Positions 15,634 to 20,183 of a DNA stretch of 40,776 nucleotides are shown in pieces. Below the pieces are notes generated by a model that was not told the DNA's origin, searched no databases, and saw only the letters and a list, made by a program, of their open reading frames with translations. Made by a program: the position numbers and the translations under genes. Position 1 is the stretch's first letter; each line of letters begins with the position of its first letter. The DNA comes from a virus, in the UHGV virus genome UHGV-0210060, one strand, 5' to 3'.

Positions 15634-15852
15634 ATGTACTTGACACTTCAGGAGTGGAACGCACGCCAGCGACGCCCAAGAAGCCTTGAAACAGTTCGTC
15701 GATGGGTACGCGAGTGCAGGATATTCCCTCCTCCGGTTAAGGATGGAAGAGAGTATCTGTTCCACGAATCAGCGGTAAAGGTTGACTTAAATCGACCAGT
15801 AACAGGTAGCCTTTTGAAGAGGATCAAAAATGGGAAGAAGGCGAAGTCATGA
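15634..15852 (+). CDS. xis: excisionase Xis (lambda type)
   Basis: MYLTLQEWNARQRRPRSLETVRRWVRECRIFPPPVKDGREYLFHESAVKVDLNRP... is essentially lambda Xis. Confidence 0.95.
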   Translation: MYLTLQEWNARQRRPRSLETVRRWVRECRIFPPPVKDGREYLFHESAVKVDLNRPVTGSLLKRIKNGKKAKS

Positions 15853-16900
15853 GCGCCGGGATTTACCCCCTAATCTTTATATAAGAAACAATGGATATTA
15901 CTGCTACAGGGACCCAAGGACGGGTAAAGAGTTTGGATTAGGCCGAGACAGGAGGATAGCAATCACTGAAGCTATACAGGCCAACATTGAGTTATTTTCA
16001 GGACACAAACACAAGCCTCTGACAGCGAGAATCAACAGTGATAATTCTGTTACGTTACATTCATGGCTTGATCGCTACGAAAAAATCCTCGCCAACAGAG
16101 GAATCAAGCAGAAGACACTCATAAATTACATGAGCAAAATTAAAGCAATAAGGAGGGGGCTGCCTGATGCTCCACTTGAAGACATCACCACAAAAGAAAT
16201 TGCAGCAATGCTCAATGGATACATAGACGAGGGCAAGGCGGCGTCAGCCAAGTTAATCAGATCAACACTGAGCGATGCATTCCGAGAGGCAATAGCTGAA
16301 GGCCATATAACAACAAACCCGGTCACTGCCACTCGCGCAGCAAAATCAGAGGTAAGGAGATCAAGACTTACGGCTGACGAATACCTGAAAATTTATCAAG
16401 CAGCAGAATCATCACCATGTTGGCTTAGACTTGCAATGGAACTGGCTGTTGTTACCGGGCAGCGTGTTGGGGATTTATGCGAAATGAAGTGGTCTGATAT
16501 CGTAGATGGCTATCTTTATGTCGAGCAAAGCAAAACCGGCGTAAAAATTGCCATCCCAACAACATTGCATGTTGATGCTCTTGGGATATCAATGAAGGAA
16601 ACACTTGATAAATGCAAAGAGATTCTTGGCGGAGAAACCATAATTGCATCTACTCGTCGTGAACCGCTTTCATCCGGCACAGTATCAAGGTATTTTATGC
16701 GCGCACGAAAAGCATCAGGTCTTTCCTTCGAAGGGGATCCGCCTACCTTTCACGAGTTGCGCAGTTTGTCTGCAAGACTCTATGAGAAGCAGATAAGCGA
16801 TAAGTTTGCTCAACATCTTCTCGGGCATAAGTCGGACACCATGGCATCACAGTATCGTGATGACAGAGGCAGGGAGTGGGACAAAATTGAAATCAAATAA
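15830..16900 (+). CDS. int: integrase Int (lambda-type tyrosine recombinase)
   Basis: 356 aa; MGRRRSHERRDLPPNLYIRNNGYYCYRDPRTGKEFGLGRD... near-identical to lambda Int along its length; overlaps xis. Confidence 0.95.
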   Translation: MGRRRSHERRDLPPNLYIRNNGYYCYRDPRTGKEFGLGRDRRIAITEAIQANIELFSGHKHKPLTARINSDNSVTLHSWLDRYEKILANRGIKQKTLINYMSKIKAIRRGLPDAPLEDITTKEIAAMLNGYIDEGKAASAKLIRSTLSDAFREAIAEGHITTNPVTATRAAKSEVRRSRLTADEYLKIYQAAESSPCWLRLAMELAVVTGQRVGDLCEMKWSDIVDGYLYVEQSKTGVKIAIPTTLHVDALGISMKETLDKCKEILGGETIIASTRREPLSSGTVSRYFMRARKASGLSFEGDPPTFHELRSLSARLYEKQISDKFAQHLLGHKSDTMASQYRDDRGREWDKIEIK

Positions 16901-17130
16901 TGATTTTATTTTGACTGATAGTGACCTGTTCGTTGCAACAAATTGATAAGCAATGCTTTTTTATAATGCCAACTTAGTATAAAAAAGCTGAATGAGAAAC
17001 AAGAAAAATCATCAATATCAATGTGTTATGATGGTTTTGGTCTAAATAATAGACTACATAATACTGCAAAACACAGCATGTGCAGTCACTATGAATCAAC
17101 TACTTAGATGGTATTAGTGACCTGTAACAG
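16900..17130. other. attP (lambda-type core at 16974..16988 with P and P' arms)
   Basis: TTAGTATAAAAAAGC is the reverse complement of the lambda core GCTTTTTTATACTAA; the int-proximal arm matches lambda, the distal arm is recognisable but diverged. Confidence 0.85.
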
Positions 17131-17437
17131 AGCATTAGCGCAAGGTGATTTTTTTTCTTCTTGCGCTAATTTTTTGTCAACTCACTGGGTTAGTTGAATT
17201 TACAACCATGCTCAGTATCTCGATAAGCGCAGAGAAATGATGCAGTGGTGGGCGGACTGGCTTGATGAAAAGGTGGAGCAACCAACATTGCTATATCTCA
17301 GATAGCACAAAGCCTTGCAATCCAGTGCAAAGCCTTGTGTGTCTCAGTTTTGCCTCATAGGTAATGAGGCTTTAACTGCGATGCAGTAATCAATACTAAA
17401 ATTTACTTAAAATTCATAAATACACCAGATAAAAACA

Positions 17438-17459
17438 ATCCCGCATTTTTATGCGGGAT
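17438..17459 (-). terminator. intrinsic terminator after the tailspike gene
   Basis: ATCCCGCAT-tttt-ATGCGGGAT with a T-run on the minus strand. Confidence 0.7.
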
Positions 17460-17477: not shown

Positions 17478-20183
17478 CTACATTGCCATTAATATAAACA
17501 TAGCCAATTCGTCATAACGAATTCCGTAGCGTCCTCCTGCTTTTTTTACAAGAATCATATCTCCTGTTTTATATTGAGAATAAATTTTCTCACCTGTATC
17601 AGGATCTGTGCTCTCTTCAGTTATCACCTCTTCATCCCATACGTCAGGCCATTCATCGTAACACCAAAAAGCATATTGCTCAGGGTTTAAACCATGCTTT
17701 CTAAGAATATCCCCTACGGTTTGAGCGCCAACGCCAAAATGATACCTGGACGACTCAATTCCTTTGTTATTAATTGAGTCATTAAATTTAAATTTATAGA
17801 TGACTGACTTTATTTCAATAGCGGCATCACGCTCTGCATTAAGAATATCATATCTTGTTTTAAGAGTTTCATCTGATGTATTGATTGACCCGGTTCCTGC
17901 ATAAATAACAGAGCATCTGTTTGATGGCTGTCCAATGGCTTTAACATTATCATCAACAGGAGCTATTTTATTAGCATCTGCCAACCACCAGTCTGTTCCA
18001 TCAGCGTGACCGATTCTTACTCTTATCCCACTTCTAATATTTAAACTTCCAGTATTACTCTGTAAATTACAATCTCCTGACGTTGGTCCAAGCAGTACAG
18101 TTTTACCAACACCACATACTACTCTGGCATTTCCTTTTTGTGATACGAGTCTTGACTCACCTCCTGACTGCTCAGGAAGAGATTTATGGTCTATAAATGC
18201 ATCGCGGGGGTTAAATACACCGTCTCCGGAATTATATCTTCCTCCTGTATAGTTGTTAAATACAGGACCCCAGTCAACGCCATTGCCTTCAGAGCACCCG
18301 ACCATTCTAAGCACTCGAGTATTCCCTGCTGCATATGGTAATGAGCTTGTTGATTGCCGGGAAGCTATCATACGTGCTCCATAACCAATAGCATTACCAC
18401 CATTTATAGTTACATATGCTTGCTGGCTTTCGAAATATGTACTGTAAAAGTTCATATTTCCACAGTCATGTAGATGAATAAGAACATCATCCCATCCCTG
18501 AATGGTTCCTGCATGTACCTGTACACCGCGAACTGGTTCCCCTGAAACCTCCATACACTCTGATGGTCGGCTGAATGGTTGAGACAGGTATTGCGATGTG
18601 GCAAGCAGATGTGTGTGGTGATACAGGCTGGTAATGTAGCAATCGAAAAATTGCGTTCCCGCCATACCAAAGTTATCTATGTCATTTCGCCGTATAGTAG
18701 AACCTACTGTTGCCTCAGAAGCGTTAGACACTCCAGTAAATACTAACTTATCACCGGATACGGATAATCCTGAATAAGTGAAATTCCTGCCTCCAGATCT
18801 TAAAACCCCGGACGTTTCGAAGGTGTGGCTTGCTGACCATGGTATTTCGATAGTGCTGGACGTTACCGCTGTAATTCGGAATACATCATGGGCGCGGATC
18901 GAAATACCCTTGAATCCTTGGAATCTACAGTGATAATAGTTTTCATCCTCGCCCTGAGCGGCCAGCGTGCCAGATACAGGAATGTTCGTTTTTAAAAGTG
19001 CCGTCTTGCGCCAGTATCCAACCACCTGCAAATTGCGGTATTCATTGCCAAAAGACGCACGTGACCAAATACCTACATCCCACTCATCGCCAAGACCGGT
19101 ATTTGCAATGTCTTTATAACCATCCAGCCCATTGAAATATGGAACAACACGAAAGTTCTCAAGGCGAACACATCCTGTCTCAGGCATCAATATTGCGGCA
19201 GAGAATGGTTTAAGCGTGGCTCTTGTAGTCCCATTAGCATCACCGTTAGTAAAATCCAATAAATCATATGATGACGCAGGTGCCGTTGTTGTATACGGGT
19301 CTTCGGAAGATGGGTTAGAAACCACACCACCACTAACATCCATATTAGAAACACAATCTACAGTATATTTTTTATTTCCTACCCCGTACATCAGGAATGT
19401 GGTCCCTGTGGTAATATCAGGAGCAAATGTTGCAGTATATCCTGAGACCCATTTGCCCACACCAAGACAAATTATCCCACCACCAGAAACAGGTGTTAAC
19501 GTATCCGTTATTACATACGCATTATCAGTACCATAAATAACCTTTCCTGTGTTAAGGGCAGCTTGCCACGCGGCCCAGTCTATTGACTGAGATAATGAGT
19601 CAACAAAAGGATATAAGGATTTTGCTTCAGAAATTGAAGAAAACCACTCAGATAATGGATGATATTTCCCATCCCCAATTGCTCCAAATTGTTTTACATT
19701 TAAGAAAAGAGCATTGTTTTCATGCTGAGTTATAGTTGCAGCCCCGGTAAATGGCTGCCTTACCCCAATTAATGCATCACCTTTTGAATCATCATTAATG
19801 TATGCTCCTGATTGAGATAACTGCTCTTTGAAGTCTGGGCCAAACTGATCTGGATCGTATTTTAATACATTTGGAAAATAAAACTGCTGAGTGCCATAAG
19901 CATCGTAAACAGCCATAGAATGGCCTTGCACGGTAACGAATTTGGCAATCTGTCCGTTATATACCGGATAACCAGCAGCGTTAATGATGATGGGTTGCGA
20001 AACAGGAGCGTGAGAACCGTCTTCGTTCTCCACATAAACCTGAATCTGGTTTTCAGGATTTACCGGGTCAGTGTCAATTTTACCGATATAAATTTTGCCA
20101 TTGGCTACGGCTTTAAAAGAACGAGCCATAGTGAAGAGTTGCGAAGGCATGCTTACCACAACATTGGCTGTAATGTCTGTCAT
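17478..20183 (-). CDS. tailspike (P22-type head-binding domain, beta-helix domain, C-terminal intramolecular chaperone)
   Basis: 901 aa; N-terminal ~110 aa match the P22 gp9 head-binding domain ([45 protein letters not shown] ... [12 protein letters not shown] ... NVLKYDPDQ); [10 protein letters not shown] glycosidase-like start; [11 protein letters not shown] near the C-terminus. Confidence 0.85.

Follow-up and report, generated by a model that had tools for sequence, protein, structure and literature searches.

The attachment site attP of phage lambda and the retroregulator sib/tI are textbook elements, both already known, and the locus described here, one of many natural alleles, holds nothing new in kind. 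In lambda, excision uses P2, X1, X1.5, X2, F, H2, H′, P′1, and P′2 (PMC4880445; PMC7145599), with X1 being important for loading Int at P2 (PMC7145599), while sib lowers the expression of int from pL, an effect known as retroregulation (PMC5300877). In the literature that we searched, we found no usable study that compares natural alleles of lambda attP and no usable details of the sib sequence.

Our analysis concerns a viral genome (UHGV-0210060) that was read over one stretch of 40,776 nucleotides, referred to below as the window. Like the window, phages 434 (OL657226 / M60848), HK97 (AF069529), PDP110P1, and Huey combine a lambda core with conserved motif blocks, variable spacers, and the sib hairpin, and each of them differs from the window at 19 to 21 positions in the 94-nt stretch that leads from the core to P2. 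We are confident that positions 16897 to 17177 of the window constitute a functional lambda-family attP (P′-O-P) followed, just beyond the P arm, by sib/tI, in a P22-like lambdoid phage equipped with the lambda int-xis cassette. This assignment rests on sequence identity, the retention of motifs, conservation in relatives, the RNA structure predicted by folding, and the place that the allele occupies in bacterial chromosomes. A preceding sequence-only reading of this DNA had called the site a lambda-type attP, and rightly so: the core, C and C′, the arm-type, IHF, and Xis/Fis sites, int, and xis are all present by sequence.

A lambda int-xis-attP cassette in a P22-like phage

Across the whole window, P22-type head, ejection, and tailspike genes are found together with lambdoid early genes; the phage is P22-like and lambdoid, and its int-xis-attP cassette is that of lambda (Table 1). 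As seen from the sequence and the list of open reading frames between 16500 and 17600, the 356-codon int frame ends at 16900 and is preceded by an overlapping 72-codon xis frame. Lambda Int and Xis are 98.6% and 97% identical, respectively, to the proteins of the window. Compared with lambda, Int carries the changes S89N, H164P, A166T, A245T, and I248V, and Xis carries G59S and R65K, the latter in its C-terminal tail. Most of these changes, G59S included, are the rule throughout the family, and it is lambda that deviates. The arm-binding N-terminal domain of Int (residues 1 to 64) and the DNA-binding part of Xis (residues 1 to 55) show no change from lambda.

Table 1. Features of the att region and its surroundings, in window coordinates. 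The last column gives the frequency of the window allele and of the lambda allele among 58 distinct P-arm variants.
Feature	Position	Strand	Comparison with lambda and other remarks	Alleles among 58 variants
xis (excisionase, 72 aa)	15634..15852	+	70/72 identical to lambda Xis	
int (lambda integrase, 356 aa)	15830..16900	+	351/356 identical to lambda Int	
P′3 arm-type Int site	16897-16907		exact lambda sequence; overlaps int stop codon	
P′2 arm-type Int site	16908-16917		exact lambda sequence	
P′1 arm-type Int site	16918-16928		exact lambda sequence	
H′ IHF site core	16936..16948		CAACAAATTGATA; identical to lambda	
Crossover region	16970..16990		C′ 16970-16978, 15-bp common core 16974-16988, C 16982-16990; identical to lambda	
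Variable spacer, C to H2	16991..17015		conserved GAAAC and A-run; lambda -10..-34; 9/24 differences	
H2 IHF site core	17016..17028		TATCAATGTGTTA; fits WATCAANNNNTTR; 2 differences	window 23/58, commonest; lambda 5/58
Fis site core	17040..17054		GTCTAAATAATAGAC; fits GNNYRNNWNNYRNNC; 4 differences	window 10/58, second commonest; lambda 3/58
Xis site X2	17048-17060		1 difference	window 12/58, second commonest; lambda 3/58
Xis site X1.5	17061-17067		1 difference	window 9/58; lambda 5/58
Xis site X1	17068-17080		allele AAAACACAGCATG; 2 differences	window 3/58, rare; lambda 52/58
P2	17083-17092		identical to lambda	
H1 core	17094-17106		identical to lambda	
P1	17113-17123		identical to lambda	
sib/tI	17127..17177	+	hairpin, T6 run, and outer stem including T-run; stem and flanks identical to lambda	
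3′ remnant of IntS (Sf6/HK620/HK633)-type integrase gene	17180..17305	+	translation matches C-termini of full-length integrases	
Tailspike, 901-codon ORF	17478-20183	-	98.9% identity to annotated prophage gene	

Core and P′ arm are those of lambda, and the P arm differs by substitutions only

The boundaries of the arm-type, Xis, and IHF motifs, which are those established for lambda attP, were located by sequence. In the orientation of the window, the sites run in the order int, P′, O, P. The match of the core and the int-proximal arm to lambda, as claimed in the sequence-only reading, is borne out in full. That is, the 15-bp core (TTAGTATAAAAAAGC) matches the common core of lambda, GCTTTTTTATACTAA (J02459, 27724-27738), exactly on the opposite strand, and the P′ arm (16901-16973), which holds P′3, P′2, P′1, H′, and C′ at lambda positions +84 to +3, is identical at 73 of 73 positions, with P′1 to P′3 (16897..16928) corresponding to lambda positions +84..+53. 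All five arm-type Int sites (P1, P2, P′1, P′2, and P′3) have the lambda sequence and lie at the lambda distances from the core. Similarly, all three IHF sites match WATCAANNNNTTR, H1 and H′ with the sequence of lambda, and H′ and H2 form an inverted pair within the window. A hybrid or secondary att site is ruled out, both arms being phage-type and the left flank being P′ rather than B′.

From the core to P1, the P arm differs from that of lambda by 24 substitutions and no insertions or deletions, all between lambda positions -12 and -99. The description of the distal arm as diverged is thus correct for its core-proximal two thirds only, whereas P2, H1, and P1 at the far end are those of lambda; the string gaatgagaaacaag...gatgg, which had been quoted in support, sits at 16990-17034. 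As to whether the differences fall outside known protein-binding sites, a point that had been raised against their having an effect, this is largely what we found. Fifteen of the 24 lie outside motif cores, the two in H2 (lambda TATCAATATATTA, window TATCAATGTGTTA) are both on N positions of WATCAANNNNTTR, and the four in the Fis core (lambda GCATAAAAAACAGAC, window GTCTAAATAATAGAC) keep the consensus GNNYRNNWNNYRNNC; X1, however, carries two rare changes, at -95 and -99, so that its top strand reads CATGCTGTGTTTT versus TATGTTGTGTTTT in lambda.

Two of the changes in the Fis region touch features with a described role. A C-to-T substitution at -69, a position shared by Fis and X2, turns the C-A step at Fis positions +3/+4 into T-A; a Y-R step at this point is reported to be required for cooperativity between Fis and Xis, which is retained with T-A, T-G, or C-G (Hancock et al. 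2019, PMC7145599). In addition, the A6 run inside the Fis site, which contributes an intrinsic bend (PMC4880445), is interrupted in the window (AAATAA). Taken together, the 24 substitutions look like ordinary allelic variation in spacers and at degenerate motif positions, with spacing kept exactly.

The same P-arm allele occupies the canonical lambda attB in three Escherichia coli chromosomes

A lambda-type core plus P arm is present in 944 of 5,426 complete E. coli genomes (~17%). Among these, the P-arm allele of the window occurs in three, namely, UPEC_U013 (NZ_CP058596) and 20AR0300 (NZ_CP195498), both with 160/160 positions identical, and 19A14 (NZ_CP147046) with 159/160. In all three, the allele is part of an attR, joined to B′ (…CGCTCAAG plus core) and adjoining ybhB-bioA. 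The canonical attB of lambda is the interval between ybhC and ybhB (gal-bio). At the other end of the UPEC_U013 prophage, the corresponding attL adjoins ybhC, the junctions read B′-O-P and P′-O-B with canonical attB arms, and the crossover region is the junction point of both attL and attR.

The strains originate from Taiwan, New Zealand, and Japan. Since the genes that adjoin attR are not the same in each of them, the allele travels on different prophage mosaics. The UPEC_U013 prophage has the region of sib, the remnant, and the tailspike in common with the window (98.9% identity over 3.2 kb) but is otherwise a different mosaic that matches the window in patches only, at 86 to 99%. The three chromosomal copies represent the integrated form, P-O-B′, and the window represents attP; seen in both states, the allele must have undergone site-specific recombination. 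We reject integration elsewhere in the chromosome, which the sequence-only reading had considered, since the opposite was found: the same arm lies beside ybhB-bioA in three E. coli strains. The P-arm allele of the window is, to judge by the proxy of these three chromosomes, each with another phage's copy, integration-competent at lambda attB.

Natural P-arm variants reproduce the known binding sites

To place the window among its relatives, we scanned IMG/VR with a pattern consisting of the core and the P2-H1 block, which returned 84 loci; in 82 of these, the core lies at the same distance from P2 as in lambda. Combined with phage records, the set comprised 90 loci with 58 distinct P-arm sequences of 160 nt. 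Most loci (69/92) proved to be attR junctions joined to B′ ...CGCTCAAG. The allele of the window itself was also present in two IMG/VR loci (L027 and L057) and in none of 50,697 phage records, where the best full-length match to the 401-nt att region was 93.5% identical.

Aligning the 58 variants separated conserved from variable columns. C, the motif GAAAC (-15..-19), the H2 core, the Fis/X2 block, X1, P2, H1, and P1 were conserved, and positions -12..-14, -20..-32, and -48..-58 were variable; within the C-H2 spacer, GAAAC and the A-run were the only columns that did not vary. The 58 natural variants thereby provide a phylogenetic footprint that reproduces the biochemically defined sites of Int, IHF, Xis, and Fis.

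Which of the two alleles is the unusual one also becomes clear from the alignment. Over 160 positions, the window has 17 mismatches to the family majority and lambda has 20, and the T-A step at Fis +3/+4 is found in 53/58 variants. Laboratory lambda, and not the window phage, is the atypical member of this att family. The sole P-arm motif feature that is specific to the lineage of the window is X1, a site almost invariant elsewhere in the family (Table 1). Both of its substitutions, T1-to-C and T5-to-C, are natural at the corresponding positions of X2 as well, where CATGC is present in 7/58 variants, so that Xis appears to tolerate the two base changes in X1.

Consequences for integration and excision

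We infer protein binding, termination, and RNase III processing from lambda by the near-identity of the proteins and sites. By this analogy, Int would bind the five arm-type sites and four core-type half-sites, IHF would bend the DNA at H′, H2, and H1 such that Int can bridge arm and core sites, and recombination with attB between ybhC and ybhB would leave the phage integrated. In excision, Fis would recruit Xis to X2, upon which an Xis filament would fill X1.5 and X1 and help Int onto P2.

The sequence-only reading had proposed that the divergence might alter the binding of accessory factors and, with it, integration efficiency. We find this unsupported, with consensus positions kept and the allele residing at the canonical attB. 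In a more general form, the idea would be that the diverged arm alters binding of IHF, Xis, or Fis such that the efficiency of integration or excision, or its dependence on these factors, is measurably unlike that of lambda. This we consider unlikely. The features that speak for it are the two rare X1 substitutions (3/58 variants), the interrupted A-tract of the Fis site, and H2 flanks that are very unlike those of lambda, given that X1 occupancy and the A-tract bend aid assembly of the excisive complex (PMC4880445; PMC7145599). Yet every position that defines a consensus is kept, the two X1 changes are natural in X2, as described above, and the interrupted A-tract belongs to the second commonest Fis allele, present in 10/58 variants of a family in which it is lambda that departs from the rule. 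Moreover, three unrelated strains carry the allele as an attR in the canonical position. One of these, UPEC_U013, has this P arm alongside a standard Xis (G59S only), and our search for a compensating change in Xis or Int found none there and, in the window, only R65K in the C-terminal tail of Xis. Should the alleles nevertheless differ in excision efficiency, they would offer a natural series for studying how far the intasome tolerates sequence change.

A second alternative to ordinary allelic variation holds that the P-arm spacers form a truly hypervariable patch, shaped by diversifying selection or a mutational hot spot, rather than merely unconstrained DNA. Between the window and its relatives, nonmotif P-arm columns differ at about 34%, a figure based on only 38 columns and on pairs that are not independent. 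By comparison, the adjacent integrase remnant, which may itself not be neutral, differs by a median of only 13.5% (aligned), and fourfold-degenerate sites of int differ at about 8%. The high number of variants, 58 distinct ones in 90 loci, would fit as well, but these variants represent a handful of old haplotype blocks instead of many singletons. In addition, the prophage has the P arm at one end and int at the other, and Int-mediated exchange at the core reassorts the two, so that different coalescence times are to be expected for them. The divergence of the spacers is equally explained by separate histories of the two att arms, and a hypervariable patch strikes us as very improbable.

The inverted repeat beyond P1 corresponds to sib/tI

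The perfect 11-bp inverted repeat next to attP had been noticed before, with a start at 17135 in place of 17134 and a loop of 14 in place of 15 nt; that it corresponds to lambda's sib/tI had been missed. Its arms occupy 17134-17144 and 17160-17170 and enclose the loop GTGATTTTTTTTCTT. Perfect 11-mer inverted repeats whose loops measure 3 to 20 nt number 4 in the window, versus a mean of 0.07 in 30 shuffled sequences. Here, the repeat extends to 18 nt with 83% complementarity (17127-17144 / 17160-17177) and includes a T6 run (17171-17176); hairpin and T6 run together correspond to lambda positions -153..-195.

Our terminator scan had a loop limit of 8 nt and so missed tI, for which we used RNA folding instead. 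The plus-strand RNA is predicted to fold with -22.8 kcal/mol (z = -5.8), compared to -24.3 kcal/mol for lambda, and with the same architecture, comprising a 12-pair inner stem and a 6-pair outer stem across one 1x1 mismatch. In the minimum-free-energy fold, the outer stem pairs ACAGAG (17127-17132) with UUUUGU (17172-17177), as in lambda. Shared with lambda sib/tI are also the 11-bp stem, the outer-stem flanks (ACAGAGC... / ...TTTTTTGT), the T-run, the distance from P1, and the location on the same strand as int. Rfam, searched between 16700 and 17600, has no curated sib family and returned only a subthreshold chance match to mir-627 (19.8 bits versus a gathering score of 86). Of 91 related loci, 88 have a perfect stem at an unchanged distance, with loops of 14 to 16 nt, and the equivalent stretch is annotated as "sib retroregulation site" in the HK97 record and as "terminator" in the 434 record. 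On sequence and predicted structure, the inverted repeat is lambda's sib/tI retroregulator.

If the element acts as it does in lambda, transcripts from pI would stop at the hairpin and U-run to yield a stable int mRNA. In contrast, N-antiterminated transcripts from pL would read through, allowing the U-run to pair with the upstream ACAGAG into a longer stem, which RNase III would cut, such that the int message decays from its 3′ end (retroregulation). Upon integration, sib and int would come to lie at opposite ends of the prophage, and Int could then be made from pL after induction.

The window differs from lambda in the loop, which has 15 versus 14 nt owing to an extra T and additionally shows a G-to-T change. 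The predicted cost is one inner loop pair, or about 1.5 kcal/mol, and the G-to-T change is confined to the lineage of the window (5 loci). The rare X1 allele, the interrupted A-run of the Fis site, and this weaker sib loop could each slightly shift the efficiency of excision or retroregulation. That the spacers are fast-evolving and that the X1 double substitution, the A-tract break, and the sib loop jointly establish a different set-point for excision or retroregulation is, in our view, very improbable; if true, natural attP alleles would be tuning knobs for lysogen stability instead of neutral variants.

That the repeat might be something other than sib/tI, such as a palindrome bound by a protein or the terminator of a minus-strand gene, is scarcely credible: the minus strand does fold (-19.5 kcal/mol, z = -4.0), and the plus-strand A-run before the palindrome would supply a U-run after a minus-strand hairpin, but the stem and flanks are identical to the experimentally defined element of lambda, the plus-strand fold is stronger and forms its outer stem with the U-run, the element keeps its place with respect to int and attP in 88/91 relatives, and the nearest minus-strand gene, encoding the tailspike, has its own terminator at 17438-17459.

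A remnant of a different integrase gene marks the edge of the cassette

Beyond sib/tI, a short plus-strand reading frame with the translation ...IYNHAQYLDKRREMMQWWADWLDEKVEQPTLLYLR* represents the 3′ end of an IntS-type integrase gene (Table 1). A tRNA scan of the whole window, carried out in search of an old IntS attP target, returned no tRNA genes. The remnant is absent from lambda, with the flanks on both sides of it being common to lambda; it lies outside attP and forms the border of the lambda cassette. As in the window, such an IntS-type remnant follows sib in phages 434, PDP110P1, and Huey.

A replaced IntS cassette next to the P arm

Directly after the T-run of the sib retroregulator hairpin, the lambda-type int-attP-sib cassette of the window gives way to the surviving 3′ end of an IntS-type integrase gene. 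Its translation agrees with the C-terminal ends of three full-length integrases, those of HK633 (97%), HK620, and Sf6. This remnant marks the joint at which the lambda cassette took the place of an IntS cassette. It is also present in 434, PDP110P1, and Huey. Lambda is without ∼106 bp of it while retaining both flanks, and so, judged from the sequence, looks like a deletion derivative at this position.

Features in and beyond the P arm of the window
Feature	Position	Strand	Remark
H′ core (IHF site)	16937-16948
Non-motif P-arm columns compared	16991-17047		lambda -10 to -66
GAAAC	17004-17008		lambda -15 to -19; 149-153 in locus L009
H2 core (IHF site)	17016-17027
IntS-type integrase 3′ remnant	17180-17305	+	translation ends ...IYNHAQYLDKRREMMQWWADWLDEKVEQPTLLYLR*
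Direct repeat	17308-17337		CAAAGCCTTG, two copies 20 nt apart; from repeat search
GC-rich hairpin, 9 bp	17438-17459		ATCCCGCAT/ATGCGGGAT; A- and T-runs on its flanks
Tailspike gene	17478-20183	-

Downstream of the remnant, the direct repeat lies within a block, GCACAAAGCCTTGCAATCCAGTGCAAAGC...TTGTGTG, that is common to the window, lambda, and 434; in the 434 record, CII-binding sites are annotated near the equivalent region. The GC-rich hairpin farther on is likely the terminator of the tailspike gene and possibly acts in both directions.

Variation within the lambda att family

Laboratory lambda (L001) is an outlier within the lambda att family. Its sequences for H2, the Fis site, and the Xis sites X2 and X1.5 each occur in only 3 to 5 of the 58 distinct natural P arms, and its Xis G59, Int H164, and Int I248 are likewise minority states in the family comparison.

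Across the compared loci (L001 to L093), divergence of the window from relatives is ∼34% in those P-arm columns that belong to no motif. The median difference in the adjacent pseudogene remnant is 13.5%, and fourfold sites of int differ by ∼8%. The P-arm value may reflect a patch that is hypervariable or, alternatively, a coalescence that is older.

Of the complete E. coli genomes, 5,426 in all, 944 (17%) have a core and P arm of the lambda type. The allele of the window occurs in only 3 of these 944, and 911 have one that is 80 to 90% identical to it.

Symmetry around the core

The GAAAC block, which falls outside the listed motif cores, is near-invariant among the 58 P-arm variants. At attR, the junction of the P arm with the bacterial B′ arm, it is mirrored by a GTTTC in the latter, giving GTTTC-N7-core-N7-GAAAC, an arrangement that may be due to chance. 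The H′ and H2 cores form a 12-nt inverted pair around the core, with 92% complementarity. Judged by eye, the two match each other more closely in the window than they do in lambda, which has TATCAATATATT as its H2.
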